From: Candidatus Omnitrophota bacterium | GTDB lineage: Bacteria; Omnitrophota; Gorgyraeia; Zapsychrales; JANLHA01 | Reading direction: 5' to 3' | Assembly: GCA_023247795.1 (NCBI GenBank) | Contig: JAHFFT010000006.1 | Coordinates: forward strand, 4,664-68,663 | DNA: 64,000 nucleotides | Shown: positions 30,033 through 51,174 of the stretch, one piece after another | How positions within the stretch are numbered: the stretch's first letter is position 1 | Layout: every line of letters starts with the position of its first letter | The notes under the pieces: generated by a model | Database searches by the model: none | What the model was told of the DNA's origin: nothing | The model's input: the letters and a program-made list of their open reading frames with translations, nothing else | Position numbers and translations under genes: made by a program

Positions 30033-30821
30033 ATGAATATTGAAAACAAGAAACAAATAGCAATCATTTTGTTAGCGGTTGGATTAGGGCTCGTCGCTGC
30101 TGTTTTAACCGCCAATCATATTCAAGATAGCATCAAAACCGAAACCGCCCGACTTTCCCAGGAATTTGAAAATAAAAAAATGCGGCCGCTTGTCGAAGAG
30201 ATTAAGGATATGCAAGCGGAATTGCAAAAAGTTAAAGACCGGCCGATCCCGCAAATGCCGCAGGTGCAAGCGGCGCTGTCCCTTCCCAAATCCTCGCTGG
30301 CTTTGCGAACACCGGAAGGAAAAAGAGCTTACACGGTTAGGATTGACGCGCTCTCCGCCGTTGGCGGCATGATCAATCCCGGTGACTACGTGGACATCAT
30401 AGCACACATGGATATGCCGGATCCGGTGACGAACGAAAATGAAAAAATTTCCTCGATGATCTTTCAAAACATCCAGGTTCTGGCGGTAGGGGTCAAATTT
30501 CAGGCCCCGGGCGAATATGAAGAGCAGCAGGAAGCCAGGGCGTTGAATATCACCTTCGCGTTATCGCCGGAAGAAGCCAGTTTGCTGTCATTTATTGAGA
30601 AAAACGGCCGGATGCAGCTGGTTTTGCGTCCGCCGGAAGAAACCGCGACCGAGGTCATTCAAGCCGCGAGCTGGAGTTCTTTGGCGGATTATGTTTTTGA
30701 AAAGCAGGGGACTGAGCTGGTGGTTCCCCGTTCTAAAGCGGATATTGAACCGGTGAAATCAGACAAACAAGAAGAGGTCAAGCCCTTTATTCAGATTTTC
30801 CGTGGCGGACAAGCTTTTTAA
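30033..30821 (+). CDS. cpaB: Flp pilus assembly protein CpaB/RcpC
   Basis: N-terminal TM segment and SAF/RcpC-like C-terminus (...INPGDYVDIIAH...). Confidence 0.8.
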   Translation: MNIENKKQIAIILLAVGLGLVAAVLTANHIQDSIKTETARLSQEFENKKMRPLVEEIKDMQAELQKVKDRPIPQMPQVQAALSLPKSSLALRTPEGKRAYTVRIDALSAVGGMINPGDYVDIIAHMDMPDPVTNENEKISSMIFQNIQVLAVGVKFQAPGEYEEQQEARALNITFALSPEEASLLSFIEKNGRMQLVLRPPEETATEVIQAASWSSLADYVFEKQGTELVVPRSKADIEPVKSDKQEEVKPFIQIFRGGQAF

Positions 30822-35465: not shown

Positions 35466-35515
35466 GCCCTCAGTGTCCCAGTTTTTTTGGGCCTGGGCAA
35501 CGGGGACTCTCAAGA

Positions 35516-35758: not shown

Positions 35759-35863
35759 AGGAATCCTTGATTAAAGTGAATGGAAAAAGTTTAAGGTTAT
35801 GTCTTTCATCGCTAAGGTCATTATACAACAAGATTTTTAAAAGCGAAAAGAGAAGTTGTTTTT

Positions 35864-35924: not shown

Positions 35925-35935
35925 AGGGATTTTTT

Positions 35936-37720
35936 ATGGGAGTTATTCATAAACTCAAACAAGAAGTTGTACAGTTCATTGTCCAAAAGAAGAAGGATCT
36001 CCCGCAGGTCAGCTGTCGAAAGATGGCGGATTTTGTCCATACCGCATTTGAATTAAATCTCTCTAAGTCGGCGATTAACAACATTTTACAGAGATCGACG
36101 TTAAGTAGTCCGGTGGGCAGGCGGCCACAAGACCCCGGCCGAAAAGAATCGGTTGTTCAACAGGGTGTTAAAGCCAAATCTTTTAAAATTCCCGATCAGA
36201 AGAAAATATTAGGGGGACAGTCCCCAAAAAGGGACTGTCCCCCTCCTGGTTTTCCTCCTGTTCCCCCGCTTCAACCGTCTAAGTCTCCTCTTCCTCCGGT
36301 CGCACAGAGTCAGCGTAAATTCAGTGTGAAAAGAGCCTCTTCATTGCAGCCAAAAGAGGGACTGTCCCCTAAAGGGGACAGTCCCCCTAAGCTACCAAAG
36401 ACGCTTTATGATCATATGGGCAGCATTTTTCTAAAGGCGGCAGAATGGGAGATTTCCGACGGGCCACTTTTGGGAAAAATACTAAAGGATCATCTGCCGG
36501 CCGGATTTTCTCAGCAAGAGCTGGAGCAGGCCGGGGAAGTGCTTTTATTTTTGCAAGTATTTGGGATTAAAAGACTTGAAGATTTTATTCATTACACAAA
36601 AGACGGATTATGGGCGATTAACGGTCTAAAAACCAAAATCCCATTTTTCAAGATCAATGATTTAGCACGATTTTTGAATACCGTTTCGGGGGTAAGAGCA
36701 CAGCTGCAAATACACATTTCACAATTAGTTACAAAAGCAGCCTATATCAAGGTGGTCTTTAAAGCCGGTAATTGCTTATGGGTAGATGCCCTGGGCGCCG
36801 GGCTGAGTTCTGCGAAGAGAAAAGGGCCCAATTTTTCGTCCATCAACCAGATCACCACAACAATGATCAATCAATGGTTAATGCCGCGTGAGCCGCTGAT
36901 TCTGGGTGCTGTTCAGGATGGCCAATCGCTTTATCATTTGGCGGCAGGCTTTGCTAATGACACGAATCGAAAATTACATAAGATCATGGCTTTTGGTTAT
37001 GACGATCAAGAGATCATTGCCTTTGATTCCTTCATTGACACAAAACGATCATTTCTCGTCGGACTATGGCCGTCGCAGGAGTTTTATCAGCAACTTTTTG
37101 GATCGCAAGATTTTGTTTATAAGAAAAATTTTGAAATGACCGATGGCCATAAGCAGGTTGCCTATGATGAAATGACCGTTAAAATCAAAGATCCGGTTGG
37201 GGAGTTACATCCCATTTCGTTAAGGGCGGTGGGGTTTGAAATGCCAGGGAACCAGCCGCAAATGGGCGTTATTTTAACCAATATGAGTGATAAGGAAATG
37301 ACAGCAGCGGGACTCATCAGTGCTTATGTTCAGCGCTGGCCCTGTTTTCAAGAATCGAAATCGCTACAAAATTTTCTGCAACCCAATGTCTCGGAAGAGT
37401 ATGTGTCTCAAGATGAAAATATTTCCAACGATTTATCCGAGGCCAATGATTTGCATATTGCACTTAACTATTTGAATCGCTACGGCCAAGAGGCCTTTTT
37501 TCCATCAGCATACGGCGATTTAGACCTATCATCAATGACATCAATATTTTACAACATAGCCGGATATTTACAGTGTACCAAAGAGCTGGTAAAAGTTGAA
37601 CTGATTATGCCAAGGGAAGATTATCCTTATCAAAATGATTTGGCTCTGGCGGTCAGGAAGGTCAATGAGCGCAATATCAGCGATTTTCAGGGAAGAAAAT
37701 TATTTTTGTCATGTTTATAA
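35936..37720 (+). CDS. 594-aa transposase-like protein (N-terminal HTH; C-terminal Y-x2-R-W...E...K like the IS4/IS1634 C1 motif) carrying two in-frame REP insertions
   Basis: REP doublets at 36212-36243 and 36358-36387 are translated as ...GGQSPKRDCPPPG... and ...KEGLSPKGDSPPK.... The YVQRWPCFQESK block resembles DDE-transposase C1. The family call is tentative. Confidence 0.35.
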   Translation: MGVIHKLKQEVVQFIVQKKKDLPQVSCRKMADFVHTAFELNLSKSAINNILQRSTLSSPVGRRPQDPGRKESVVQQGVKAKSFKIPDQKKILGGQSPKRDCPPPGFPPVPPLQPSKSPLPPVAQSQRKFSVKRASSLQPKEGLSPKGDSPPKLPKTLYDHMGSIFLKAAEWEISDGPLLGKILKDHLPAGFSQQELEQAGEVLLFLQVFGIKRLEDFIHYTKDGLWAINGLKTKIPFFKINDLARFLNTVSGVRAQLQIHISQLVTKAAYIKVVFKAGNCLWVDALGAGLSSAKRKGPNFSSINQITTTMINQWLMPREPLILGAVQDGQSLYHLAAGFANDTNRKLHKIMAFGYDDQEIIAFDSFIDTKRSFLVGLWPSQEFYQQLFGSQDFVYKKNFEMTDGHKQVAYDEMTVKIKDPVGELHPISLRAVGFEMPGNQPQMGVILTNMSDKEMTAAGLISAYVQRWPCFQESKSLQNFLQPNVSEEYVSQDENISNDLSEANDLHIALNYLNRYGQEAFFPSAYGDLDLSSMTSIFYNIAGYLQCTKELVKVELIMPREDYPYQNDLALAVRKVNERNISDFQGRKLFLSCL

Positions 37721-38312
37721 TACGAATACTAATATATAACAATTCTGTAACTTGACATTTAAAATAAGAGCATGTTATACTTTAAAAGTGAAGAGGGGGG
37801 AGATCTGGCTGCTTATCAGGAGCAGGGAATGATTGTAAGTTTTTTTGAACAAATAAGATACATATTCCAGAATGGCCTCGCATTTCTTTTTTTAAGATAT
37901 CATCCTTTTGAACATCATCTCCATCCATCGCGGGCTGGAGATTTTTTATTGACTGCAAAGTCTTTCGAGAAAAGGCGTGTTGCAAGCGATCTGACCTTGC
38001 TTTTAGCAGGGATGATTCTGTGGGCCCATCCAGTGGTCTGCAGATGCCGGCTGCAAAATTTGGCCGGTAATAGAGTCCGAGAGTGAATTCTGCTTGAAGC
38101 GCGGGGATGCTTTAAGGCGGACAAGGGTTATTTGAAACGTTAGGACAGAAACATTTGAACAAAGGCGACAACAGCAAATTTTTAAAAAAATCAGGCCTTT
38201 GATCAGAGAAGTTTGGTCTTAACCGCAAATGACTTAAGAAAAGGGTTCACACCTGAAGGGATTTGTAAAGTTGTTTTAGCAACGTTAGTAGTCATTTTGA
38301 AGGAGGATAGCA

Positions 38313-38543
38313 ATGTATAAGAAAAGGAATCAAAAAAAGAAAGGGCAGAGTACGCTGGAATATATCATTTTAGTCACCGGTGTGATCGCCGTTCTTATTA
38401 TTTTTTTAAAGCCGGATACAGGTATTTTCACCCAGGCCTTCAATGGTGTTTTGGGTAGCGCCAAAGACGGCATGGTTAATATGTCAAACCGGTTATCGGG
38501 ATCTTGGCCTTCGGATCAAGTGGGTACAAAAACCGGGGGATAA
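38313..38543 (+). CDS. Flp/Tad-type prepilin A (76 aa)
   Basis: Leader MYKKRNQKKKG, then QSTLEYIILVTGVIAVLIIF (Gly at -1, Glu at +5 class-III prepilin motif). GGAGG RBS. Confidence 0.7.
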   Translation: MYKKRNQKKKGQSTLEYIILVTGVIAVLIIFLKPDTGIFTQAFNGVLGSAKDGMVNMSNRLSGSWPSDQVGTKTGG

Positions 38544-38578
38544 GATCAGCAAAGAAATTAAAAACGGAGGAACAATCC

Positions 38579-39010
38579 ATGTTTAGAAAGTTAATGAAGA
38601 ATAAGAAAGCGCAGCAGACCGCGGAGTACGCGTTGCTGATTTCGCTGGTGGTCGCGGCGGTGATCGCGATGCAGACTTACGCTCAGCGCGCGATTCAAGG
38701 ACGTATCCGCGATGCCTCGTCGTATTTGGTTGAGAAAACACCGGAACTCGGAGACATTAATCAATACGAACCTTATTATCTAAAAACCGATTATCATATT
38801 GACTCTTTTGATGAAACGACCGAGAGTCATACGAATGAAATCAAAGGCGGTAAATTCGAGTCTGACACCTACTCTGAACGCACCAGACAGAAAGATGGGT
38901 TTCAGGCTTCAGATTATAAGTCGGTTGTGACTGAAGATAGTTTTAAGCCCAGTGGAGGATCGGGCACCAGTACCGGAGGAACGCCTCCAGCTGGCGGCAC
39001 GACCCCGTAA
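38579..39010 (+). CDS. TadE-like pseudopilin B
   Basis: MFRKLMKNKKA/QQTAEYALLISLVVAAVIAM (TadE-type N-terminus). GGAGG RBS at 38565. Confidence 0.65.
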   Translation: MFRKLMKNKKAQQTAEYALLISLVVAAVIAMQTYAQRAIQGRIRDASSYLVEKTPELGDINQYEPYYLKTDYHIDSFDETTESHTNEIKGGKFESDTYSERTRQKDGFQASDYKSVVTEDSFKPSGGSGTSTGGTPPAGGTTP

Positions 39011-39073
39011 TAGAGGATGCTAAATTGATCCAATTCTCTTTGCAGAGAAATTAAATTGAGGAGGAGGCGAGAC

Positions 39074-39397
39074 ATGTTTAAATTTTTAAGGAAGATGAAA
39101 GGGCAGAGCACCCTGGAATACGCGGTTTTGATCATCATTGTCATTGGTGCTTTGTTGTCCATACAAATGTATATTAAGCGCGGCATCCAAGGTCGTCTAC
39201 GAAGTGCTGCCGACGATATCGGCGATCAGTATGATCCAGGTAACGTCAATTATCGTGTTCACACAACTGTTGTTAGTAACACGCACGATACATTTATAGA
39301 CGGGAAAACCAATTCGACCTTATTGCAGCCGGAAAAAACAATCACAACGGTCAATTCCGAGATTGTTAACGCGGAGCAGACCTTTTGGGGGAGATGA
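39074..39397 (+). CDS. prepilin-like protein C (GDQYDP family)
   Basis: MFKFLRKMKG/QSTLEYAVLIIIVIGALLSI...DDIGDQYDPGN. GAGGAGG RBS. Confidence 0.65.
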   Translation: MFKFLRKMKGQSTLEYAVLIIIVIGALLSIQMYIKRGIQGRLRSAADDIGDQYDPGNVNYRVHTTVVSNTHDTFIDGKTNSTLLQPEKTITTVNSEIVNAEQTFWGR

Positions 39398-39469
39398 TTG
39401 GATCTTCATGATACCCGCAAAATGGAGAAGCATTTTGTTAAGTTAACAAGAGGGCCCAGGAGGACAGCA

Positions 39470-39700
39470 ATGATAAAGAAAAGGAATCAAAAAAAGAAAG
39501 GGCAGAGCACGCTGGAATATATCATTTTGGTCACCGGTGTGATCGCCGTTCTTATTATTTTTTTAAAACCGAATGGAGGCATTTTTACCAAGGCCTTCGA
39601 TGGTGTTTTGAATAGCGCCAAAGACGGCATGGTTAATATGTCAAACCGGTTATCGGGATCTTGGCCTTCGGATCAAGTGGGTACAAAAACCGGGGGATAA
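39470..39700 (+). CDS. prepilin A' (paralog of 38313)
   Basis: MIKKRNQKKKGQSTLEYIILVTGVIAVLIIFL..., nearly identical to A. Confidence 0.7.
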   Translation: MIKKRNQKKKGQSTLEYIILVTGVIAVLIIFLKPNGGIFTKAFDGVLNSAKDGMVNMSNRLSGSWPSDQVGTKTGG

Positions 39701-39735
39701 GATCAGCAAAGAAATTAAAAACGGAGGAACAATCC

Positions 39736-40119
39736 ATGTTTAGAAAGTTAATGAAGAATAAGAAAGCGCAGCAGACCGCGGAGTACGCGTTGCTGATTTC
39801 GCTGGTGGTGGCAGCGGTGATCGCGATGCAGACCTACGCCCAGCGCGCGATTCAAGGACGTATCCGCGGCGCATCGGCGTGGCTGGTTTCCGCGACAAAT
39901 GAGATTGGAACAACGAACCAGTATGAACCGTATTATTTGGACACCAAATATGAAATTGACAGCTATGATAAAACCACGGAGGTTCATACGAATCAAGCCG
40001 GCACCGGCGGTAAGTTTGACACCGATACTTATTCTGAGCGCACCAGAAAAGCGGGTGGTGCCCAAGTTTCAACGTATGATATGCCTATAAAGACCGATGA
40101 AACACAGTGGAAAAATTAA
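39736..40119 (+). CDS. TadE-like pseudopilin B' (paralog of 38579)
   Basis: N-terminal 60 aa identical to B. The C-terminal half has diverged. Confidence 0.65.
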   Translation: MFRKLMKNKKAQQTAEYALLISLVVAAVIAMQTYAQRAIQGRIRGASAWLVSATNEIGTTNQYEPYYLDTKYEIDSYDKTTEVHTNQAGTGGKFDTDTYSERTRKAGGAQVSTYDMPIKTDETQWKN

Positions 40120-40207
40120 TAACCGCTGAGGGTGTTCAGATTTCAAGCGGAGGTTAAGAGGATTAAAATCTCTTTTTAGAGAAATTCAATTAAGGAGGAG
40201 GCAAGAC

Positions 40208-40540
40208 ATGTTTAAATTTTTAAGGAGGATGAAAGGGCAAAGCACCCTGGAATACGCGGTATTGATTATCATTGTCATCGGGGCCTTGCTGTCGATACAA
40301 ATGTATATCAAGCGTGGTATCCAAGGCCGGTTGCGCAGTGCGGCCGACGACATCGGCGATCAGTACGATCCAGGTAACACCAATTATGTTAGAACAACCG
40401 AGGTTGCCAGCAATACGAGGGATACTTTTAAAGCCGGCATTACGAATTCTGTTTTACTAGATGATGAGACGACCACGACAATTGTGAATAGTACAATTAT
40501 CAATGCCGAGCAGACCTTTTGGGGAAATGAGAAAAAGTAG
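40208..40540 (+). CDS. prepilin-like protein C' (paralog of 39074)
   Basis: MFKFLRRMKGQSTLEYAVLIIIVIGALLSIQMYIKRGIQGRLRSAADDIGDQYDPGN. C-terminus diverged. Confidence 0.65.
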   Translation: MFKFLRRMKGQSTLEYAVLIIIVIGALLSIQMYIKRGIQGRLRSAADDIGDQYDPGNTNYVRTTEVASNTRDTFKAGITNSVLLDDETTTTIVNSTIINAEQTFWGNEKK

Positions 40541-40595
40541 TAAAATTATGGAATTCTCCGAAATAGCGGCGTTGCATTTTTTTATGGGAGGATGA

Positions 40596-40757
40596 ATGTT
40601 GGGTTGGCGTAAAAGAGGAAAGACCGGTCAGAATTTGGTCGAATACGCGATTGTTATCGCGGTGGTGGCGTCGGCGATGTACGCGATGAGCACCTATGTC
40701 TTTCGTTCTGTTCAATCAACCCAGCAGATGATCCAGCGGGAGTTTTCCCGTCAATAA
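40596..40757 (+). CDS. flp: canonical Flp pilin (53 aa)
   Basis: Manual translation: MLGWRKRGKTG/QNLVEYAIVIAVVASAMYAMSTYVFRS... Classic Flp motif G-x-x-x-V-E-Y-A-I-V. Under 60 aa, so absent from the ORF track. Confidence 0.7.
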   Translation: MLGWRKRGKTGQNLVEYAIVIAVVASAMYAMSTYVFRSVQSTQQMIQREFSRQ

Positions 40758-40837
40758 ATTGAGTATGTCATTAAGACATTTTGGGGTATCAAAGGCAATG
40801 CCTCAAAATGAAAAAGGCAAATAAGTAAAATAAGCAT

Positions 40838-40888
40838 GGCTTACTTTAAAGAAGATTTCTCATCTTGAAGTAAGCCTTGTTTTTTCTT
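40838..40888 (+). terminator. Rho-independent terminator after flp
   Basis: 8-bp stem GGCTTACT/AGTAAGCC, then TTGTTTTTTCTT. Confidence 0.55.
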
Positions 40889-40896
40889 AAACGTGT

Positions 40897-40960
40897 TCCC
40901 CGCTCCCTAGCCCTCCCCGCAGAGGAAAGGGAAAAAGATCTTAGCTCAATGGGGGAGGGA
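40897..40960. repeat. palindromic repeat family B copy
   Basis: CCCCGCTCCCTAGCCCTCCCCGC...AATGGGGGAGGGAAG matches the copy at 24918-24974. Confidence 0.5.
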
Positions 40961-40982
40961 AGTTGTGATGAGAGGTTGAGGC

Positions 40983-41402
40983 ATGTTTAAAAATTTACGA
41001 GACAATAAGGGCCAAGGCATCGCGGTGCAATATGTGCTGGTCTTTTTTATCGTGATTGCCTTTGTTTCGTCGATGTCGGTTTATGTCCGTCGAGTTTTGC
41101 AAAGCCGTATCCAGGGTGCCGGCGATTTTTTAGTGAAGCAAGTGTATGCCATCCATTCCAACGCGGAAATGAATTTTTTAGGGAACCTGGTCCGAGAATA
41201 CGAACCGTATTATGTTCAGTCGGACAGTCGACGGTTTACCAACAGCGATACGTTAAGACGGGAAGATGTTTTTGCCCCAGCCACGAATGTCAGTGTTTAT
41301 CGGATGGACATGGACGATAGCACAGCCGTGAAATCCGTATCGAAGCAGAAGCGGCCGATCGATGCCCTGAAAGATCAGGGCCTTCAGCCGCCGCACCTGT
41401 AA
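40983..41402 (+). CDS. TadE-like pseudopilin paralog (139 aa)
   Basis: ...NKGQGIAVQYVLVFFIVIAFV... hydrophobic prepilin-like N-terminus, with the Glu at +5 replaced by Gln. Confidence 0.5.
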   Translation: MFKNLRDNKGQGIAVQYVLVFFIVIAFVSSMSVYVRRVLQSRIQGAGDFLVKQVYAIHSNAEMNFLGNLVREYEPYYVQSDSRRFTNSDTLRREDVFAPATNVSVYRMDMDDSTAVKSVSKQKRPIDALKDQGLQPPHL

Positions 41403-41417
41403 GAGCAGAGGAGTAAG

Positions 41418-41753
41418 ATGAGATTTGGTCATCGAGAAAACGCCCAGACATTTTTGGAATACTCGCTTTTGATCGGGATTGTGGTGGCGGTTTTGATGGC
41501 CATGTCGCCGATGTTGCGGCGATCGACGCAGGCGATGATTAAAGTGGTTTCCGATCAGGTCGGGGACCAGGTCAATTCCGAACAAGAAGGCGGTGACCAG
41601 GGGCATTTGGATTCCGTGAATACCATAACACGGGTGGATCGGCAGATCAGCACCATTGATCGTTTGGGGACGAGAAGGATCGATTATGATAAGGATTCGA
41701 CATTTACTGATTCGAGCGTGATTGTGAACCAAGGATTTCGGGAAACGAATTGA
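41418..41753 (+). CDS. prepilin-like protein (111 aa)
   Basis: ...ENA/QTFLEYSLLIGIVVAVLMAM.... Confidence 0.55.
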   Translation: MRFGHRENAQTFLEYSLLIGIVVAVLMAMSPMLRRSTQAMIKVVSDQVGDQVNSEQEGGDQGHLDSVNTITRVDRQISTIDRLGTRRIDYDKDSTFTDSSVIVNQGFRETN

Positions 41754-41808
41754 TTGTGAATTGAATAGTGAATTAGAGAAGAGTGAAATAAGGAGCGAGG
41801 TGTCAAAA

Positions 41809-42120
41809 ATGAGGCAAAGAGGACAAAGCACGTTAGAGTATATGATTCTGCTGATTTTGATCATCGCCGCGTTCATCGCGATCGGTAACTATTTTGGCCG
41901 CGGGGTGTTGGGGCGCTGGAAGGCCGCGGTGGATGATTTGGGGGATCAATATGATCCGCGGTTAACCAACGGCAAAGTGACGGTCAGTTTGTCGGCCAAT
42001 ATGGAAAGCCGGGTTGTTTCCGTTCCTGATGAGACCCGTGAAGGCGTATGGACGATTCGTACTGATCAATCCAACTCTCTTGAGCGGCGTTCGGGATTCA
42101 CCAGCGTCGGAGGGTTTTAA
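41809..42120 (+). CDS. prepilin-like protein (GDQYDP family)
   Basis: MRQRG/QSTLEYMILLILIIAAFIAI...DDLGDQYDPRLTN. AAGGAG RBS. Confidence 0.6.
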   Translation: MRQRGQSTLEYMILLILIIAAFIAIGNYFGRGVLGRWKAAVDDLGDQYDPRLTNGKVTVSLSANMESRVVSVPDETREGVWTIRTDQSNSLERRSGFTSVGGF

Positions 42121-42125
42121 GCTTT

Positions 42126-43553
42126 ATGAGTCATGGTTTTTATACAAAATGGTTCAAATTCCCGCAGGCCGCTCAGGCCGCTTCGGAGTTGGCGATTTTT
42201 GGCGCTATTTTGATCTTTGTCATAGGGCTGATTGTCCGCACCGGATTCAATACCAGCCAGAATTTAAATCAGCAGCTCAGGGCGTTTCGATTCGCGCTTA
42301 CAGAGTCCTATAAAACGGGAGAAGGGCAGTATACCGGCCGCCGCCCGTCTCGGGCACGCAATGCCGCTTCTATTCTTCTGATTGAAGATCGTTTGTCCAT
42401 CAACGGTGCTGATCAATTGGGAGAACGTGATCGGATTCCTTATATGACAAGTGCTTCCGGAACTTTCAGCCGAAATTTGTTGATGCCGCTGGCTTTTGAA
42501 AGCACCCAACACTTACCTATATTTGATTTGATTGTGAATGGCCAGCGGTTTCCTTTCATTACGTCAGCATTTAAGGAATATGATTTAATGACGATGTATC
42601 GGGATAACGAAGCGAAGCATTGTGATCATGATCCTCATCCGAGAGGGACCTGCTGGGACAAGAATTGTAATGGCGGACAAGGATGCGTTATTTTTTATAC
42701 AAAGATTGTTAGGGCGAATGCTATCGGAAAGTTTAATTCCGGCTGTGAGAAATGCTTTGATTTGGATTTGGATGGAAAGGTGGATGTCCCGTCGGAATTA
42801 CGAACCAATTTTCATTGGCAGTGGCAGACGGTCGAGGGGTTGAAAGAAAATATTGATCCCGCGAATGATCTGAACTCGAGCATGGACGTTGATGGTGATT
42901 TAAAGGAAGAGAGCGTGTTAGAGGTTGTGGGAGTTCCTCCGCCGGCGTCCGATCCTAATGCGACATTAGCGGCCTATCAAGCAGAAGTCGCCAAGCACGC
43001 GAATGAAATTCAGTCGCTCAAGGTGGTTGATTTTCAGGAGGGGGACGTCAATTTGGGGTTTGATGATCAGGACGCGGCGCTACGCGAGGAACAGGGACTG
43101 TCAAAGCGTAAATTTGGATTGGATGATGATGTTGCCATTTACGCGATGACAAAAGAGGGAACCATGCTGCGAGTGGAACAGGGAAAATTATTTGATCCGT
43201 TAACTTCTCAATTCATCCGCAACACCAATCGACAGGACCACGCGGAATTGATCCAACGCATTTTTTATATTGATAACGATACGGGACGCTTTTGCACATC
43301 CGACGGTCAACCTTTGCAGTGGAAATACGCCGATGGGAGTCCTAGCGAATGGGCCAAGAAAAATGCCGTCGCAGGCTTAGATAATCCAGTGGAGGCCTGC
43401 AATAACTGTTTTTCTCAGGATAATATCGAGCTTACTTGTATGGATCAAGGGAAGGACCGTCCTCACGAAGGCCCGATCATTTTTATCCGCAGCCGAATCA
43501 AGGACCTGCGCGGCCGACGCTGGGTAACGAGGTTGGAGGAGTTTGATAAGTGA
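42126..43553 (+). CDS. 475-aa protein with pilin-like N-terminus and Cys-rich extracellular region
   Basis: ...AAQAASELAIFGAILIFVIGLIV..., then ...HCDHDPHPRGTCWDKNCNGGQGC.... Confidence 0.45.
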   Translation: MSHGFYTKWFKFPQAAQAASELAIFGAILIFVIGLIVRTGFNTSQNLNQQLRAFRFALTESYKTGEGQYTGRRPSRARNAASILLIEDRLSINGADQLGERDRIPYMTSASGTFSRNLLMPLAFESTQHLPIFDLIVNGQRFPFITSAFKEYDLMTMYRDNEAKHCDHDPHPRGTCWDKNCNGGQGCVIFYTKIVRANAIGKFNSGCEKCFDLDLDGKVDVPSELRTNFHWQWQTVEGLKENIDPANDLNSSMDVDGDLKEESVLEVVGVPPPASDPNATLAAYQAEVAKHANEIQSLKVVDFQEGDVNLGFDDQDAALREEQGLSKRKFGLDDDVAIYAMTKEGTMLRVEQGKLFDPLTSQFIRNTNRQDHAELIQRIFYIDNDTGRFCTSDGQPLQWKYADGSPSEWAKKNAVAGLDNPVEACNNCFSQDNIELTCMDQGKDRPHEGPIIFIRSRIKDLRGRRWVTRLEEFDK

Positions 43554-43855
43554 AAGGTGAAGAGAGAGTAGTGAATAAAAAAATTCAAGCCCAGGTGACC
43601 ATCGAGTTTACTTTCAGCATGATGATCACGTTATTGTTGATCGTCGGGATGATTAAGGTCTTCACCTGGACCGGACGGGATTTGGCCGACCGTATTCACG
43701 CCCATGAAGAGATTTTAACTAAGGATTTAGGGTGTACCAGCTCTTCTTGTCCTATGAAGCAGATTAAGCCCACGTTTTATACGGCGACGGACATCGATGC
43801 CGCCTACCCCGCGAATTTTTTCAATTTTGACATGAAAGGGCTTGAGAAGGATTAA
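43550..43855 (+). CDS. TadE-like pseudopilin (101 aa)
   Basis: ...KIQAQVTIEFTFSMMITLLLIV.... Start overlaps the upstream stop by 4 nt. Confidence 0.55.
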   Translation: MKGEERVVNKKIQAQVTIEFTFSMMITLLLIVGMIKVFTWTGRDLADRIHAHEEILTKDLGCTSSSCPMKQIKPTFYTATDIDAAYPANFFNFDMKGLEKD

Positions 43856-43869
43856 ACGAGCAGCCATAG

Positions 43870-46800
43870 GTGGTTTTTGTGATCAATGAATTGAATAAAA
43901 AAATAATGCAGGTAAAAAGGTTTTTTCAAATCCGAAATCCGATTTCTGAAAAACACCGTTCAGAAAAAGGGCAGATCGCGGTGATTTTGATTTTGGTCGC
44001 CGCGGTCGGTCTGATTTTTTACGCGGTCGTGTTCAATTTTAACCGCATTTCGCAAATCAAAACGTTAACCATGCAGGCGGCAAATGCCTCGGCAGCTCAG
44101 ATGGTTTCTTCGATGGCGAGTTATGGAGAGTCGGTTTGGCAGGTGTATTTGAGAGGCAAGCTCGATGGGAAGAAACCAGGCTATTGTAAGCATGATAATG
44201 TTTTTAAGATGATCATCAAATTCATCATTATCCTCATCATTGTTATTATTGCCGTTATTACGGGACAATGGTGGGCTATATACGCAATCATAGCATTGGC
44301 ATATAGTTTTGTGGCGATTGTCTTGCAAGTTACGGTGGTCCAACCCGGGCTAACCGATGCCTGGAATAAAATGATCGCCAATTTATCGATCGCCGATCAA
44401 TTTGTTGAGATGGGGGTGCAAGCGGGCATTCAGGGTGTCGTTACGGACAATGTGCAAATTCCCGATTTGATTGACAGCGACTCTGATGGAATTTTTGGCG
44501 ACCTGCAGAATCCTTCTGATAAAAAAAGCGCGCCGGACTACATCTCACGTTTTGGATATAACTATACCCAGCGGTTGCGGCGGATTCCTATAGTTGATAG
44601 TTCCGCTGTCAATTATTTTATCAATGGAATAAAAGATGTGGGCGGTTTGAAGGATTTATTAGTGAAGACCGGCGATGTCAATGACTGGGGAGTTCATGCG
44701 GCTGGAACTGGGAGCGCCCTATCGGCATGCTGTTTGCCCGATGCTGCAGAAAATCCGGACCGTCCGGCCTGTTGCGATCTTCCCATCGACAATGATGATT
44801 TCTGCGGTGACAAAGATAAAGATAACTATGATGAAGAGTGTTCGTTGGGCGTTCGTCCGGAGGGGTGTCCTTCGAACTCGAAAGCCATCTGCGCAAAGGA
44901 AAGTATTTATTCTACCGTCACTAATCAGAACCCTCAGGGTCTATATAATGGTCGATATGATTACCCCTATGCCTACGAAGCCTTTCCGGAAAACACGAAT
45001 AATGCGGCATTGTCTTTCCGTGCGCAGTTAGGCCGAGATGATGAACACCATTTGTATCGACGAGATCCCAATAATCCCAATGGGCGGCAGCTGTTGATTT
45101 CGCCGATTCCCCCTGAGGGAACGCCAGGGCGGTTTTTTGTTGAAGACGCCAGCGGGGTTTTTCCATTTTTTTATAAGATTGGCCAATGGGGCGTTGATTT
45201 GAATGAAATCGATTATAGTAAAGTCACAACCGAGGATGTCCGTTGCAACTTGTGCGATGCAGGTAAGATGCTAGGCGCTCCTTTAAACTCTTCTACGAAT
45301 CCAGGCGTTTGTACGAATCTTCCCAGCGAGGTTTCACCGCAGTTGAGTCTGCCGCTTAATCCGACGCAAGACGGAGGTTTTCGACCCAGTGGCGGCTGGT
45401 GTGTGGATAGTGTCAATACCGGGAAGGCAGGAGATCCGCCGCAGGTCTTGGATATTGTGCCGTCGATCAATGAGTTATTTACGCCAACTAATCCAAATCC
45501 AGATTCAATACCTCCCGAAGAAGAATGCGCGGTTGGCCCAGGCAACGCCGGAGGCTGGAAACCAGGTGCGGACCGGTTTTGTTCTACTGTATATCCTTAT
45601 TCGTCCGCCTGTTTTAAGCATGGAGGAAAGGATCAGTGTTTGGTTGATTCAGAAATGGGACCGATAGGGTTTGACTGCCTGTGCGGCGAGGGGGCGGCGG
45701 CTTCCGTATCTGCGAATCTATGGCCTGATGACGCGTTGGACGAAATCGTTTATGGGCTGCCTTATTTCATTGAATACGCCCAAGGGTTGGTCAATGTTTC
45801 TACGATACAATTGAATCAGACCCTTGTCGAGTGGTATGAACAGACCGCGGATTGGATTGAGCCGGGGTGTGAGCGCACGGAAAATCCTAGCTGTCCACCG
45901 GGGTGCGAAGCAAATTCTAGTTGTCCACCGGGATGTGAAAAGAAGACCAGCTGTCCGGGGAGTTTTACAAAGAAAGGTCGTGATGGCCCGTTGAAAACCG
46001 TGAGCGGGAAGATGGTTGCGGGATCGGTATTGGATAAAAATGAGAAAGGGGAAAATGAGAAAATCGTCGGTGGGGGCGGATATCTTTATGGTTGGGTACG
46101 GGACTTGGCCAATTTTCGTAACCCAATTTATCATTGGTTGTATCCCACACAGGAAAAGGCCTATGTTGCCGACTCTTGCACGATCAAGTCCGCGGCTGAT
46201 GATAAAGCCGCTTGGTGTGTTCCGCCGTCACAGAATTCGAAGAACAACTTTGATGTGAAGGAATGTCCCGGCGTGACCGCTGAAGAGGCTGAAACTTTCG
46301 ACGCGAATAAAAATGGGGTTCGCGGTGATGTCGAAGACGTGGTGGCTTGCCTGCGGTTTAACGCCGGCGATGCCGCTAAGGGAAAGTTGAGCAATGAAGC
46401 GAAGTTCACGGCTTGTCAAACGGCTTGCTCAACGGGGACGGATGTCACGACCCAGTGCGCGTATCTGCCGCGATCGGTGGTACCCGGGTTCATCAATAGT
46501 TATGAAAATTATTTTGACGGGCAGCAGGTGAAGGGCAATCCTTGCGCCGACACCAATTTTAAAACATTATTAGATAAAAGTGTTGAAGAATCCCGCAACC
46601 AAGATGTCAAATTGCAGAAGCGTTTGAAATTTTTAGACGGTCGTTTGAAAGAGGCCCAAAACATCGCCGGGGAGACCGGGGTTTTTACCGCAGCGATCAA
46701 CAAACTTGAGGCCTTTTTAAACGCGGGGACCAAGTTTGCTGCCCCTACGGTTAAACCGGTACAAGACCTAGGAAACGGATTAGTAGCATCGATCGTTGAG

Positions 46801-47667
46801 CAAATCGCTGACCCCGTTGTTGTTCTTAATAATCAAGATTCGCCGTCGGAGGCATTGATTCAAGAAATGCTGAAACCCGAAGTCGCGCCTGACCAAAAAG
46901 GGTTATCTTCGGTCGTCGTTTATGTCTGGCAGGATGCCCAGCGCGACGATTTGCGCACGACCGCCTCGGGACGCAAGACCTTTGAAGGTTATTGGCACGC
47001 GGTCAAGGCCGAGGTGCGTATGCCCACCCGCTGCAACTATGCCTGCGGGGTGAATGGGGGGTGGGATCCGGAATATCCTTCCATTAAGACCAAGACCAAA
47101 GGGTTTTTGGGAAGCACAAGATGTTATTATTTAGAAAACAGCGATGGTATGGTTAAGGCGCGGACCATTCGTTTTGATGAAGACGTGGATCCGAAAAAAA
47201 TGGCTTTCCCGAATGGAACGCCGATTTGGGATTTTCGTTTTTTTCATCCCGATGCTGGCAAGGCCAGCATTCAAAATATCCTCGCGGATTGTAAAGAGCA
47301 AGTGGATCCATTGATCGCGAATATGAGTAAAGGATGGGGGGACCCTAATCCTCCTCTCAATTGTTGTTTTGCGGAAAAACCAGAGGAACATCATTGTACG
47401 GAAGAAGAGGCCAAGACTTGCACAAACAAATTTTTTGGCGCAAGCTTTTTATTGGACAAGATTCCTGATTATATGGCCCTCGCTGGCAGCGACGCATATA
47501 AGTATCGGGTTTGTTGGCAGCGCGTGCACGAAGATCTTTTAGCGCACGGTGTAGCGACGGAATCCTGCGCTCAGTATTTTTTTGGCGGCGCTGACAGTGG
47601 GGGCCCCGCCGGGATGCGCATGAAATTTGTGCCTTGCGATGAGCGTTTTATTAAGGGATTCAATTGA
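43870..47667 (+). CDS. 1265-aa TadG-like membrane-anchored protein with a Cys-rich ectodomain
   Basis: N-terminus ...SEKGQIAVILILVAAVGLIFYAV... plus a second TM segment. About 45 Cys in total. Tandem SCPPGCE repeats encoded at 45885-45960. Confidence 0.7.
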   Translation: MVFVINELNKKIMQVKRFFQIRNPISEKHRSEKGQIAVILILVAAVGLIFYAVVFNFNRISQIKTLTMQAANASAAQMVSSMASYGESVWQVYLRGKLDGKKPGYCKHDNVFKMIIKFIIILIIVIIAVITGQWWAIYAIIALAYSFVAIVLQVTVVQPGLTDAWNKMIANLSIADQFVEMGVQAGIQGVVTDNVQIPDLIDSDSDGIFGDLQNPSDKKSAPDYISRFGYNYTQRLRRIPIVDSSAVNYFINGIKDVGGLKDLLVKTGDVNDWGVHAAGTGSALSACCLPDAAENPDRPACCDLPIDNDDFCGDKDKDNYDEECSLGVRPEGCPSNSKAICAKESIYSTVTNQNPQGLYNGRYDYPYAYEAFPENTNNAALSFRAQLGRDDEHHLYRRDPNNPNGRQLLISPIPPEGTPGRFFVEDASGVFPFFYKIGQWGVDLNEIDYSKVTTEDVRCNLCDAGKMLGAPLNSSTNPGVCTNLPSEVSPQLSLPLNPTQDGGFRPSGGWCVDSVNTGKAGDPPQVLDIVPSINELFTPTNPNPDSIPPEEECAVGPGNAGGWKPGADRFCSTVYPYSSACFKHGGKDQCLVDSEMGPIGFDCLCGEGAAASVSANLWPDDALDEIVYGLPYFIEYAQGLVNVSTIQLNQTLVEWYEQTADWIEPGCERTENPSCPPGCEANSSCPPGCEKKTSCPGSFTKKGRDGPLKTVSGKMVAGSVLDKNEKGENEKIVGGGGYLYGWVRDLANFRNPIYHWLYPTQEKAYVADSCTIKSAADDKAAWCVPPSQNSKNNFDVKECPGVTAEEAETFDANKNGVRGDVEDVVACLRFNAGDAAKGKLSNEAKFTACQTACSTGTDVTTQCAYLPRSVVPGFINSYENYFDGQQVKGNPCADTNFKTLLDKSVEESRNQDVKLQKRLKFLDGRLKEAQNIAGETGVFTAAINKLEAFLNAGTKFAAPTVKPVQDLGNGLVASIVEQIADPVVVLNNQDSPSEALIQEMLKPEVAPDQKGLSSVVVYVWQDAQRDDLRTTASGRKTFEGYWHAVKAEVRMPTRCNYACGVNGGWDPEYPSIKTKTKGFLGSTRCYYLENSDGMVKARTIRFDEDVDPKKMAFPNGTPIWDFRFFHPDAGKASIQNILADCKEQVDPLIANMSKGWGDPNPPLNCCFAEKPEEHHCTEEEAKTCTNKFFGASFLLDKIPDYMALAGSDAYKYRVCWQRVHEDLLAHGVATESCAQYFFGGADSGGPAGMRMKFVPCDERFIKGFN

Positions 47668-47715
47668 TAGATCAATCCGCCCCTTCAATGGGGGAGGTCA
47701 GGTGGGGGTTTTTCA

Positions 47716-48102
47716 TTGGCAAAAGGAAATATGATGTGTTACAATCGGTTTGATCGACGCTGTCAAAATGAGCGCGGCGTTTCTTCGGCCATCGAATATA
47801 TGGCCATGATCACTTTTATTTTGATGGCGTTTTTTATTTCCCAACATTTTATTATGAAGGGTTTTGCCGGACGCTGGAAAGCGGCCGGCGACGCGTTTGG
47901 ACACGGTAAGCAATATGACCCCAGAGATTCTACTAAGGGTGGAAGTGTTGAGTGTTTTTTTGACGCCAAAAAGTCGTTGTGGATCAGCACCCGCTGTTTT
48001 AAATCGAAATGTGTCACTGGAATACCGTCGGATCCGGATTGTCAGCAGTTTTTGGATCCATGCAGTGAGTTGCAATCAGCGAATTCGAAATGCGGTGATT
48101 GA
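47716..48102 (+). CDS. prepilin-like protein (Cys-containing C-terminus)
   Basis: ...ERG/VSSAIEYMAMITFILMAFFI...GRWKAAGDAFGHGKQYDPRD. Confidence 0.55.
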   Translation: MAKGNMMCYNRFDRRCQNERGVSSAIEYMAMITFILMAFFISQHFIMKGFAGRWKAAGDAFGHGKQYDPRDSTKGGSVECFFDAKKSLWISTRCFKSKCVTGIPSDPDCQQFLDPCSELQSANSKCGD

Positions 48103-48120: not shown

Positions 48121-48975
48121 ATGGTCATAGCGTTATTTTTAGCCTTTTGTACCGCGGCCTTGATCGGCTATGCTGTTGTGCCGCTGGTTTATAGCCGGTC
48201 CATGATTTTAAGTCAAAAACGGGCCAGTGTTTACGCGAGCAAGCTGGATCGGGTCCTTCCTCGTCGAGAGTTGCAGAAGACGATCCAACTGTATATGCTG
48301 GCACCTTTGTTTCTAGGGGCTATTTTTTATTTTGTTTTCCCAGAAGAGATCCGTTTTTTTGGCGTCATTCTGGGGGCCATTCTCGGGTTCATTTTTCCTG
48401 GTATCTACACGACGGTCCTACTGAAAAATAACCGTAAAAAATTTGATGATCAGATGATCGACGCGTTGATGATCATGTCAAGTTCTTTCCGGGGAGGGTT
48501 GAGTTTGATCCAAGCGATGGAAGCGGTGGTTGAGGAAATGCCGGACCCGATCAATCAGGAATTCGCGACGATTTTGGGAGAAAACAAAATGGGCGTTTCA
48601 CTTGAAGACGCGTTGACGCATTTTTATACCCGCATGCCGAGCGCGGCCGTTCAACAGACAATCACGGCGGTGTTATTGGCGAGAGAAACCGGCGGAAATT
48701 TGCCGGAGATTTTTAAGCGGATTGTTAACGTCATGCGCGAACGCAAGCGTATTCAAATGCAAATCGACACCCTCACCCTGCAGGGAAAGATTCAAGGGGT
48801 TGTGATGTCAATTTTGCCGGTCGCCTTTTTCTTTGTGATCAGATCTTCGAGCGCGGGGTTTTATGACCATATGTTCAAATCAGAGGTGGGGCGGGTATTG
48901 CTGATCTTTGCCTGTGTGGCGGAGATCGTCGGGGTGTACTTGATTTGGCGGATCAGTCTGTTAAAGGATTATTAA
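48121..48975 (+). CDS. tadB: Flp pilus assembly inner-membrane protein TadB
   Basis: T2SS-F-like domain ...MSSSFRGGLSLIQAMEAV...LLARETGGNLPEIF... with flanking TM helices. Confidence 0.8.
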   Translation: MVIALFLAFCTAALIGYAVVPLVYSRSMILSQKRASVYASKLDRVLPRRELQKTIQLYMLAPLFLGAIFYFVFPEEIRFFGVILGAILGFIFPGIYTTVLLKNNRKKFDDQMIDALMIMSSSFRGGLSLIQAMEAVVEEMPDPINQEFATILGENKMGVSLEDALTHFYTRMPSAAVQQTITAVLLARETGGNLPEIFKRIVNVMRERKRIQMQIDTLTLQGKIQGVVMSILPVAFFFVIRSSSAGFYDHMFKSEVGRVLLIFACVAEIVGVYLIWRISLLKDY

Positions 48976-49064: not shown

Positions 49065-49952
49065 GTGGTTATGTTGATGTTCATTTTGACTTTGTGCTTT
49101 TTAGCCGGATTCAGTTTCATTCTGGGGATTTTCCCTTTGGATTGGGAGGCGCGGCCGACGCTGCGCGGTACCGGACTTGAGGTATTATCTCGTCGGAAAA
49201 TACCGAATCCTTTAAAGGTCATCATCCAGACTCTGGCTTTGATCAACCGTCCTTTGTGTTCAGGGGTTGTTCGCGCCCGGCTTATCAAAGATTTGGGGAC
49301 GGCGCACGTGAATATGTCGCCGGAAGAGTTTTTTTTGGTCAAAGAAATGGCGATCGTTGGCCTTCTTTTTGTCACCTATCCGATGATCCGTGCGGACATG
49401 ATGATGTTTTGGCTTTTGATGAGCATTTCGGTCGGTTATATGCTGCCGGAATATTGGTTGAAGGGAAAGATTAAGCGGGTCAAAATCATGATCGCAAAAG
49501 AACTGCCAGATACCATTGATCTTTTGGGGTTGTGCGTGAACGCGGGTTTGGATTTTATCCTGGCCTTAAAATGGGTTGTTGAGAAATCTCCCCCCACGGT
49601 TATTGTCACGGAACTTAATACGTTGCTGCAGGAAATCAATGTGGGGAAAACCCGTCGAGACGCGCTTAAAGATTTATCGTTGAAGTATGAGCTCCCAGAT
49701 TTGTCTTCTTTTACGAGAACGCTTATTCAGGCGGATAAAATGGGGACATCGGTCTCTGAGGCCTTAAACGTTTTATCTGAAGACATGCGGATTGCTCGTT
49801 TCCGCCGCGGGGAGCAGCAAGCGATGAAAGCTCCGCTCAAGCTACTCATTCCCCTGCTATTTTGCATCTTTCCAGTGGTCGGAATTCTCGTTGCCGGCCC
49901 TATCTTCCTCGAGTTCATCGAAACCAACCCCCTTCAACAGCTCGGTAAGTAA
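49065..49952 (+). CDS. tadC: Flp pilus assembly inner-membrane protein TadC
   Basis: T2SS-F-like domain ...LLGLCVNAGLDFILALKWV...LIQADKMGTSVSEALNVLSEDMR.... Confidence 0.8.
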   Translation: MVMLMFILTLCFLAGFSFILGIFPLDWEARPTLRGTGLEVLSRRKIPNPLKVIIQTLALINRPLCSGVVRARLIKDLGTAHVNMSPEEFFLVKEMAIVGLLFVTYPMIRADMMMFWLLMSISVGYMLPEYWLKGKIKRVKIMIAKELPDTIDLLGLCVNAGLDFILALKWVVEKSPPTVIVTELNTLLQEINVGKTRRDALKDLSLKYELPDLSSFTRTLIQADKMGTSVSEALNVLSEDMRIARFRRGEQQAMKAPLKLLIPLLFCIFPVVGILVAGPIFLEFIETNPLQQLGK

Positions 49953-49965: not shown

Positions 49966-50000
49966 CAGAATGGACATTAATTTAAAGGGGACAGTCCCCT
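49966..50000. repeat. composite CAGAATGGACATT-N7-AGGGGACAGTCCCCT (REP)
   Basis: Exact motifs, 5 bp from the 3' end of the RAYT gene. Confidence 0.7.
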
Positions 50001-50005: not shown

Positions 50006-50545
50006 TTATTCCTCTACTTCGTAAGAATCAAGAATTTGGAACCAGGAATAGGTGTCTTGATCTGTATAATCTTCAATGGGTTTGAGTGCTGAATTGATGC
50101 GTTTGTGTCCAGTGTGATAAGCCGCGCTCGACCACTCCCATTCCCAGGCTTTTTTTACTAGTTTTGCCTGTACCGGGTTACATTCTACATAACGGATAGC
50201 CGCCAAAAGATGATCTTCTTCCAGTAAGCACGAATAAAATCTTTCCTGCCAAAAATGTCCATTTAGATTACGTTTGCGATGCTGATCTTGAGCATAGCGC
50301 ATATGACAAACGCTAAACGCCTTTGCCAGGGAATCCTCTTTGTGGGGGATGACTATAAAGTGGACATGATTGCTCATAAGGCAATAGGCGAGGATGGACA
50401 TGGTGTATTTTTCGCTATATTCACAAATCCAAGAAAGGTATTTTAAATGATCGGCGTCATCAAAAAAGACCGTTTGTTGATAATTCCCCCTCTGGACGAC
50501 GTGATATGGGTAGTCTGGTATTACAATGCGTGCTGTTCGTGGCAT
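50006..50545 (-). CDS. REP-associated tyrosine transposase (RAYT; IS200/Y1 HUH family)
   Basis: HUH motif MSNHVHFIV; ...GHFWQERFYS...IRYVECNPVQAKLV...WEWSS... matches the RAYT C-terminal catalytic-Tyr region (compare E. coli YafM WQPRFW...NP...W.WSS). Flanked by REPs. Confidence 0.8.
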   Translation of the reverse strand: MPRTARIVIPDYPYHVVQRGNYQQTVFFDDADHLKYLSWICEYSEKYTMSILAYCLMSNHVHFIVIPHKEDSLAKAFSVCHMRYAQDQHRKRNLNGHFWQERFYSCLLEEDHLLAAIRYVECNPVQAKLVKKAWEWEWSSAAYHTGHKRINSALKPIEDYTDQDTYSWFQILDSYEVEE

Positions 50546-51156: not shown

Positions 51157-51174
51157 AATTAACCGAGTATGACT

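Follow-up and report, generated by a model that had tools for sequence, protein, structure and literature searches.

A probable Tad-like filament locus with eleven prepilin-like families upstream of a giant gene in Candidatus Omnitrophota

The giant genes of the Omnitrophota are preceded by a conserved secretion locus (West-Roberts et al., 2023; bioRxiv 10.1101/2023.11.21.568195), and Tad complexes have been reported in Velamenicoccus archaeovorus and other Omnitrophota (Seymour et al., 2023; PMC10066038). Tad systems have themselves been inferred to descend from an Epd-like archaeal system (PMC6668835). In Methanococcus maripaludis, which has a large pilin-like repertoire in three size classes, the substrates of EppA carry leaders of 5-13 residues that end in Gly and are followed by a conserved Gln at +1 and Glu at +5 (PMC3875500). 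Here we describe a locus in a 64,000-nucleotide stretch of a Candidatus Omnitrophota genome (contig JAHFFT010000006.1 of assembly GCA_023247795.1; this whole stretch is hereafter the window), of which positions 38313-48102 probably encode the pilins of a Tad-like (type IVc) filament machine whose genes are conserved throughout Candidatus Omnitrophota, immediately ahead of a giant surface-protein gene. Loci of this type have been published before, and the window holds another instance of the West-Roberts and Seymour locus, with the Rotamase_2 peptidyl-prolyl isomerase (PPIase), rcpC, the gspD/E/F homologues, the small class III genes and the downstream giant gene all present. The small genes are not resolved in the accessible parts of either paper (10.1101/2023.11.21.568195; PMC10066038), and what we add is their sorting into 11 orthologous families, a two-tier layout, a conserved hairpin and a Q+1/E+5/Y+6 signature, together with a cassette duplication, a moved Flp53 gene in the lineage of the window and an IS200/RAYT-like gene inserted before the giant gene; the archaeal-type leaders and a corrected role for the GDQY proteins are also among the useful additions. 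Taken alone, the window yields mostly confirmation and correction, not discovery.

Of the components in the Tad/Flp definition of TXSScan/MacSyFinder (PMC6668835), the locus has a TadA/CpaF-type ATPase, TadB and TadC, an RcpA/CpaC secretin, RcpC/CpaB and a TadZ/CpaE domain (Table 1). The fused CpaE-CpaF ATPase matches PF00437 with an E-value of 4.5e-57, and its best NCBIfam model is that of the TadA family (TIGR03819; 326.9 bits, under its cut-off of 373). Downstream, between 38313 and 48102, lie 14 consecutive open reading frames (ORFs) on the + strand with prepilin-like N-termini, in which a short Lys/Arg-rich leader of 5-11 residues with Gly or Ala at -1 is followed by Gln at +1, usually Glu at +5, Tyr, Phe or Leu at +6, and an uncharged hydrophobic helix. 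Gly or Ala stands at -1 in all 14, Gln at +1 in 13 (and in 10 of the 11 family consensus sequences) and Glu at +5 in 11, the exceptions being D139, H1265 and C4. A strict pattern ([KRNE][GA][QVS]xxx[EQVI][YFLI] and then 13 uncharged residues), run over the six frames of the 64 kb with 50 shuffles as a control, gave nine matches, all on the + strand between 38340 and 43966, with none elsewhere in the six frames of the window and none in the shuffles; the remaining five ORFs have looser N-terminal variants that are kept in their orthologues. The initial annotation of this DNA had claimed a Tad-type locus with at least 13 prepilin-like genes, and both the machinery and the 14 class III-type N-termini, which are syntenic and motif-bearing, bear out such a locus with a greatly expanded set. 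The cleavage motif it had read in these ORFs, G/xxxxE(Y/F), is retained in the family consensus as (K/R)(G/A)↓Q...E(Y/F).

Table 1. Features of the Tad-like locus and its surroundings (positions are those of the window; ↓ marks the predicted cleavage site).
Feature	Position	Strand	Evidence or remarks
PPIase, Rotamase_2/SurA_N-like, first conserved gene of the locus	29024..30028	+	Pfam; synteny; in published locus (bioRxiv 10.1101/2023.11.21.568195)
CpaB/RcpC	30033..30821	+	PF16976, E 1.8e-24; TIGR03177, 100.1 bits (cut-off 71)
Secretin, RcpA/CpaC-like, with C-terminal TonB_C domain	30902..32830	+	PF00263, PF13629, PF03544
Fused CpaE/TadZ-like ParA and CpaF/TadA-like T2SSE ATPase, 720 aa	32954..35116	+	PF13614/PF01656 at aa 4-241; PF00437 at aa 366-648
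U594, conserved soluble 594-aa protein	35936..37720	+	Synteny in 24 loci; no predicted transmembrane segment
Best sigma-70-like promoter match, TTGACA-18-TATACT with TG	37752..37781	+	Consensus match only; in the 592-nt gap upstream of A1
A1, 76-aa prepilin (KKKG↓QSTLEY)	38313..38543	+	PF04021 Class_IIIsignal, 26.5 bits (gathering score 23.7); family A conserved
B1, 143-aa prepilin (KKA↓QQTAEY; QYEPYY block)	38579..39010	+	
C1, 107-aa prepilin (MKG↓QSTLEY; DDIGDQYDP)	39074..39397	+	AlphaFold model
A2, duplicate of A1	39470..39700	+	
B2, duplicate of B1	39736..40119	+	First 44 residues identical, divergent after
C2, duplicate of C1	40208..40540	+	Identical at aa 2-57 of 59 conserved N-terminal residues; C-terminal half diverged
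Flp53, Flp-like 53-aa prepilin (KTG↓QNLVEY)	40596..40757	+	Mature length 42 aa
Hairpin and U-tract, core GGCTTAC...GTAAGCC	40832..40890	+	Stem 40832-40882, then UUGUUUUUU; fold z = -5.3 against shuffles
D139, B paralogue (EYEPYY)	40983..41402	+	hhalign B-D probability 99.7% over about 95 residues
E111, prepilin (ENA↓QTFLEY)	41418..41753	+	
C3, prepilin (QRG↓QSTLEY; DDLGDQYDP)	41809..42120	+	
F475, large pilin-like protein (A↓QAASEL)	42126..43553	+	AlphaFold model; conserved columns
G101, TadE-like pseudopilin (A↓QVTIEF)	43550..43855	+	L016 orthologue, PF07811 17.7 bits, below the 22.9 cut-off
H1265, TadG-like giant pilin-like protein (EKG↓QIAVILIL)	43870..47667	+	Three hydrophobic segments, 44 Cys
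C4, Cys-rich C3 paralogue (GRWKAAGDAFGHGKQYDP)	47716..48102	+	hhalign C3-C4 probability 99.6%
TadB-like platform protein	48121..48975	+	PF00482
TadC-like platform protein	49065..49952	+	PF00482
Giant ORF, at least 4279 codons, runs off the right end of the window	51163..64000	+	Peptidase_C39 at aa 189-313, after the first hydrophobic segment

For comparison 35 related loci were fetched, about 25 of which have the same gene order, namely PPIase, CpaB, secretin, CpaE-CpaF, U594, Flp53, A, B, C, (A), D, E, C3, F, G, H, C4, TadB and TadC. The pilin genes between the fused ATPase and TadB/TadC make up 11 orthologous families, and every small ORF of the window has syntenic orthologues in about 25 genomes, in which the cleavage motifs are conserved. 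In hhalign comparisons eight families (Flp53, A, B, C, D, E, C3 and C4) prove homologous to one another over the leader and helix alpha1, with C3 and C4 related over about 52 residues, G101 and F475 more distant, and H1265 separate. The window has 14 genes from these 11 families because the A-B-C cassette is duplicated in tandem with a period of about 1157 nt. Identity between the two copies is mosaic, being 100% over 38471-38650, 99% over 38471-38710 and about 40-70% in the 3' halves of B and C. Cassette duplications are also found in L010, L021 and L024, and a second clade of the related loci carries an extra A gene after C. Such cassettes could be imagined as a variation system, in which recombination swaps exposed halves to alter the fibre surface in the manner of pilin antigenic variation, and the mosaic identity, the identical assembly helices beside diverged C-terminal halves of B and C, and the recurrence of the duplication would suit this. 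However, neither copy is silent, since each has intact leaders and ribosome-binding sites of its own, there are two copies only, and purifying selection on alpha1 alone predicts the same pattern; we regard a variation system as extremely improbable.

In the Tad-like filament machine that we favour, the 11 families seem to be of two kinds. The median identity of orthologues to the window proteins is 61% for C, 59% for Flp53, 50% for B and 49% for A (tier 1), and 34% for D, 39% for E, 41% for C3, 33% for F, 38% for G, 29% for H and 36% for C4 (tier 2); for the machinery it is 64% (ATPase), 61% (TadC) and 57% (TadB). Each tier-1 gene starts with ATG and has GGAGG 5-10 nt ahead of it, the C genes having perfect Shine-Dalgarno sites. 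From D to C4 the genes are faster-diverging and tightly packed or overlapping (gaps of -4 to 55 nt), with weaker ribosome-binding sites and GTG or TTG starts in three cases, and three of them encode large Cys-rich or calcium-loop ectodomains. The small, highly conserved proteins of tier 1, with their own strong ribosome-binding sites, are thus likely to be the abundant fibre subunits, and tier 2 (D, E, C3, F475, G101, H1265 and C4) is likely to form a complex of low abundance that primes the fibre or makes up its tip, in analogy with TadE, TadF and TadG. The AlphaFold model of F475 has high confidence (predicted local distance difference test, pLDDT, 89.3; predicted template modelling score 0.83) and shows a helix (residues 13-65) leading into a beta-rich head about 400 residues long; the protein has conserved cysteines and nearly invariant acidic loops (FDLD.DG at 211-217, and D254, D256, D258 and E262 in DxDxD loops), and its sequence profile found no match in the PDB. 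C4 has eight cysteines. H1265 has no Pfam or NCBIfam match, and its likeness to TadG rests only on the GQIAVILIL N-terminus. These features of F475, H1265 and C4 would fit extracellular, disulfide-bonded tip or priming subunits.

The hairpin of Table 1, with the sequence (C)ATGGCTTACYTG...CRRGTAAGCCAT(G) and a T-rich tail, is present a single time in each of 14 related loci, with no further copy in 574 kb. In 13 of these (L002-L007, L011, L012, L018, L023, L026, L028 and L038; L001, the exception, is a short contig that duplicates the window) it is found 20-54 nt past the stop codon of C and before D, with Flp53, A, B and C all upstream, and it therefore closes a four-gene module, Flp53-A-B-C. 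An alignment of ten copies has 19 pairs, seven with compensatory changes around an invariant 7-bp core, and contains U-G wobbles, which can form pairs in the sense strand but not in its complement; the element is therefore an RNA structure, as opposed to a site in double-stranded DNA. In a second clade this place is taken by another hairpin, rich in G+C, and the 100 nt after C have the strongest fold (mean -30.6 kcal/mol vs -14 to -25 kcal/mol after other genes). With the features of an intrinsic terminator, a stable hairpin and then a sense-strand U-tract, the element is best read as an attenuating terminator that would lower tier-2 expression. Its core does not vary between genomes with proteins of only about 60% identity, which is unusual for an intrinsic terminator and suggests recognition by a protein or RNase. 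No Rfam family matches the hairpin. A repetitive extragenic palindromic (REP) element was considered and rejected, as the hairpin stands once per locus at a fixed place and the real REP-like palindrome of the window is another sequence.

In the window A-B-C directly follows U594, and Flp53 instead stands behind C2. The closest relative (L013) likewise has A-B-C directly after U594, without Flp53 between, on a contig that ends inside the first C gene. The hairpin follows Flp53 in the window because Flp53 moved behind C2 in this lineage, and since the same hairpin follows C in the 13 other loci it is not the terminator of Flp's own that the initial annotation had seen in it. A related reading would make Flp53, set apart by such a terminator, the sole major pilin, and all the others, including the proteins with a GDQYDP block, lineage-specific minor pilins. 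Flp53 does have the mature size of an Flp pilin and high conservation, most related loci have it as their first pilin gene, Flp_Fap matches come from its orthologues alone, and the hairpin directly follows it here. Against this stand not only the usual position of the hairpin but also gene C, which is at least as conserved (61% vs 59%), has an equally strong ribosome-binding site and lies in the duplicated cassette, as well as the distribution of the GDQYDP genes over three different orthologous groups, and we consider Flp53 as the sole major pilin very unlikely.

The GDQYDP genes bear directly on which pilins are minor. The initial annotation had grouped four genes (starting at 39074, 40208, 41809 and 47716) by a shared block, R(L/W)(R/K)(S/A)A.DD.GDQYDP, and had taken this to define a lineage-specific minor-pilin family. 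The paralogues are real and the full block is present in the first three, but in 47716 it is degenerate (AGDAFGHGKQYDP) and the 'DP' is usually 'SP' in relatives; it is found nowhere else in the 64-kb window. By their hhalign relationships the four genes represent three orthologous groups, C (C1 and C2), C3 and C4. Invariant positions in 50 C-family sequences are G10, Q11, S12, T13, E15, Y33, R36, G40, R41, D47, D48, G50 and Q52, with Q52 usually followed by (Y/F)-S-P and not by Y-D-P, and the invariant core is DD-I-G-D-Q. The same helix block is seen in B, D and E, where the related helix of B and D is followed by (Q/E)YEPYY and E has ADQ.G.Q. More than 1100 relatives of C1 were found at E <= 0.01, the named ones being Candidatus Omnitrophota. 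The C-family profile matched 3717 cluster representatives at E <= 0.001 and 1099 at E <= 1e-10 (clusters at 50% identity), nearly all of about 100-170 aa and aligned from the N-terminus, with one long protein among the top 150. In the AlphaFold model of C (mean pLDDT 69.6) a helix at 13-52 carries the block at its C-terminal end and leads into a small four-stranded sheet, a predicted fold with the lollipop shape expected of a small pilin; a PDB sequence-profile search of C gave nothing meaningful.

The C block and the QYEPYY block also stand within large non-pilin proteins (L031:929-6079, L032:198-1872, L033:2200-4341, L034:377-2216, L035:7070-15094 and L036:4467-12494), where the C block has the form RG.QGRL.SAADDIGDQF/Y. 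In L032-L034 the blocks come after the transmembrane segment of zf-HC2 (anti-sigma-like) vWA/YfbK proteins (zf-HC2, transmembrane segment, vWA and YfbK_C), in L031 they lie between the A2M_BRD and A2M domains of a zf-HC2 alpha-2-macroglobulin, and in L035 and L036 they occur twice in a 2675-aa protein without a domain match. Although these proteins are a minority, the block is therefore a portable module and not the marker of one minor-pilin family. For group C even the label 'minor pilin' is doubtful because of its near-ATPase conservation (61% vs 64%), strong ribosome-binding sites and duplication.

Where the initial annotation had named a canonical Flp, the Pfam check shows that Flp53 of the window does not match Flp_Fap even at E<=1, and four of its orthologues checked singly score 19-30 bits, all under the gathering score of 32.2 bits; we therefore call it 'Flp-like'. 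In a set of 70 sequences that includes 25 Flp53 proteins, 23 members match Flp_Fap (PF04964; best E 3.2e-7) and 13 match TadE (PF07811; best E 2.3e-4), and in the PDB the best sequence matches to the Flp53 profile are without exception type IV pilins, at marginal E-values. For PF04021 (Class_IIIsignal) A1 alone passes the gathering score, B1, E111 and C3 match below it and the others do not match. The pilins, H1265, U594 and TadB/C received no name from NCBIfam.

No A24 prepilin peptidase was found in the 64-kb window, within +-10 kb of about 25 syntenic loci or in the gene table of L038, and no locus protein matched a tetratricopeptide repeat family in Pfam as a TadD-like protein would. The scan for peptidases covered window ORFs of at least 90 aa with at least three hydrophobic segments and yielded only YidC, a resistance-nodulation-division (RND) pump, DUF2231, TadB/C, H1265, the giant ORF and an antisense ORF inside the giant ORF. 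The initial annotation was thus right that neither TadV/CpaA nor TadD is encoded between cpaB and tadC, and that these functions lie elsewhere in the genome is a reasonable inference. A remote or shared peptidase would be ordinary, since the MacSyFinder model of Tad lets tadV be encoded apart and MSH loci always borrow one (PMC6668835). Four polytopic ORFs in L012 and L015 that were tried as peptidases turned out to be DUF6580, BatA-like, TMEM164 and TM7S3-like proteins, and a contig-extension search recovered only known left-flank genes. The C39 domain of the giant protein was likewise rejected as the leader peptidase; the first transmembrane segment, which stands ahead of it, follows an N-terminus rich in Lys and Arg, so that the domain is probably periplasmic, whereas cleavage of class III leaders takes place on the cytoplasmic side, and the leaders have no double-glycine motif. 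The KEGG numbers K02652-K02654 presumably denote pilB, pilC and pilD. In the accessible part of the PMC10066038 supplement, PF01478 is listed for two genomes (58 and 231) that also carry K02652-K02654, and K02278 is absent from one genome with cpaB/C/F.

Upstream of the pilin genes U594 is kept at the same position in 24 loci though its identity is just 21-34%. The window copy has no Pfam or NCBIfam match and a PDB sequence-profile search gave nothing meaningful, while its orthologues have an N-terminal transposase-type helix-turn-helix (HTH) of the IS630/Tc3 type (HTH_32 in 14 of 25, HTH_Tnp_Tc3_2 in 11 of 25); it may be a domesticated transposase acting as regulator of the locus. Downstream, the N-terminus of the giant ORF is homologous to ORFs following TadC in L006 and L011, and in L038, a 3.36-Mb contig with the same gene order, the giant-gene position is taken by a gene for a protein of 74,508 residues. 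The giant ORF is one of the published Omnitrophota giant genes, for which C39 domains have been noted at the N-termini of the proteins (bioRxiv 10.1101/2023.11.21.568195). The fusions of secretin with TonB_C and of CpaE with CpaF are both kept in L038 (15-2051 and 2244-4400), where a DUF192 gene (4405-4752) lies between the ATPase and the U594 orthologue; the matching 820-nt gap of the window (35117-35935) has no DUF192-like ORF and instead two REP-like palindromes. This palindrome, AGGGGACAGTCCCCT with an adjoining CAGAATGGACATT, has four intergenic copies (35864-35878, 35885-35899, 49986-50000 and 51142-51156) and a variant near 50680. The copies flank both sides of the U594-to-TadC block and surround an IS200/RAYT-like Y1 transposase gene (50006-50545, - strand) that lies between TadC and the giant ORF and is absent from all related loci. 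The window also contains dnaA, dnaN, gyrB and gyrA at 8888-16835, with yidC and parA/parB to the left and a change of GC-skew sign near 8-10 kb; this places the replication origin within about 20-40 kb of the Tad-like locus and the giant gene.

In the mechanism that we propose, prepilins would insert into the inner membrane, where an A24-type prepilin peptidase encoded elsewhere would remove the basic leader of 5-11 residues after Gly or Ala and expose Gln+1; the fused CpaE-CpaF ATPase would then polymerise them on TadB/TadC, and the fibre would exit via CpaB and the secretin. The gene content, conservation, synteny, sequence motifs, RNA structure with covariation and pilin-like predicted folds of the locus are demonstrated. 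Cleavage, the expression tiers, the identity of the major subunit and a role in adhesion or predation we infer. Several points weigh against a Tad-like filament machine built in this way. Sequence proxies are the basis of both the tiers and the choice of major subunit, and the terminator detector that we used has a high background. No pilin family besides A reaches a curated Pfam or NCBIfam threshold, and Foldseek matched neither the model of C, which has moderate confidence (pLDDT 69.6), to solved structures nor that of F475 to the PDB. No peptidase was found at the locus to back the predicted processing of the prepilins, and the published description of the locus as 'type II secretion system-like' (bioRxiv 10.1101/2023.11.21.568195) keeps a secretion role in consideration.

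A broader reading would see here a distinct class of type IV filament machine, in which the co-expressed and near-invariant Flp53, A, B and C together make up a heteropolymeric Tad-type fibre, the conserved RNA hairpin sets their stoichiometry, the alpha1-C block (RG.QGR..A.DDIGDQ) is a docking module shared with the anti-sigma-like vWA and alpha-2-macroglobulin proteins, the machine is coupled to the giant protein, and the Gln+1 leaders are cut by a peptidase other than canonical TadV. We offer it tentatively, as this combination is decidedly unlikely to hold as a whole. For the Tad-like filament machine itself, the interest lies in the Omnitrophota being ultra-small, uncultured and suspected predators or parasites, for which the locus with its giant gene is the best candidate for a host-contact apparatus. 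The 11 families in their putative two expression tiers give concrete targets for metaproteomics, transcript mapping and cryo-electron tomography, with Flp53 and C as fibre candidates, F475, H1265 and C4 as tip candidates and the hairpin as candidate stoichiometry control, and the archaeal-like Gln+1 leaders raise the question of which peptidase serves these pilins.

Set beside the pseudopilus of type II secretion systems (T2SS; GspG-K), the locus is alike in having several pilin-like proteins, which would include a large calcium-binding tip subunit if F475 is the analogue of GspK. The locus might be a T2SS-like secretion device, whose short periplasmic pseudopilus would export the adjacent giant protein or other effectors, or help to insert or display them, in place of a long adhesive pilus. 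The giant gene is indeed a conserved downstream neighbour, following TadC in L038 as well, and West-Roberts et al. give the locus a T2SS-like label; the many pilin species resemble the five T2SS pseudopilins, and the PPIase and the secretin-TonB_C fusion could suit the export of large cargo. However, the components are Tad-type (CpaB/RcpC, the TadZ-like domain, two half-size T2SSF proteins as platform, the ATPase and a 42-aa Flp-like pilin), GspC, GspL, GspM and pseudopilins with the G↓F(M)xxxE motif had no Pfam or NCBIfam matches in the locus, the pilins have Gln+1 in place of the N-methylation motif of pseudopilins, and a secretin is unlikely to have as its substrate a protein 4,000 to 74,000 residues long that carries many transmembrane segments. 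A secretion device therefore appears fairly unlikely to us.

As a Tad-like filament machine, the locus shares with Tad/Flp of Aggregatibacter actinomycetemcomitans and Cpa of Caulobacter crescentus CpaB/RcpC, a secretin, TadZ/CpaE-like and TadA/CpaF-like parts and TadB with TadC, as well as a pilin of about 40-45 mature residues with Glu+5 and Tyr+6 and putative TadE-, TadF- and TadG-like pseudopilins. Kram and colleagues are said to have described, in 2008, a 'termination cascade' in the Tad locus of A. actinomycetemcomitans, where terminators reportedly tune down downstream genes, and the role proposed for our hairpin would be a likeness of this kind. The locus differs from Tad/Cpa in having 11 pilin families and not about four, TadZ fused to TadA, a secretin with TonB_C, and a conserved HTH protein (U594). 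It also has neither tadV nor tadD, its leaders have 5-11 aa with Gln+1, and Flp_Fap and TadE are matched only below threshold.

With the Epd pili of M. maripaludis, finally, the window pilins share short leaders of 5-11 aa, Gln+1 and Glu+5, and a large repertoire, and Class_IIIsignal is the sole curated Pfam model passed by one of them. No candidate for an EppA homologue was seen in the transmembrane scan of the window. The Flp-like Tyr or Phe at +6 is absent in M. maripaludis, and the secretin, CpaB and the TadZ-like domain mark the machine, in contrast to Epd, as that of a diderm bacterium. Archaeal-like Gln+1 leaders in such a diderm Tad system would fit the proposed archaeal origin of Tad.

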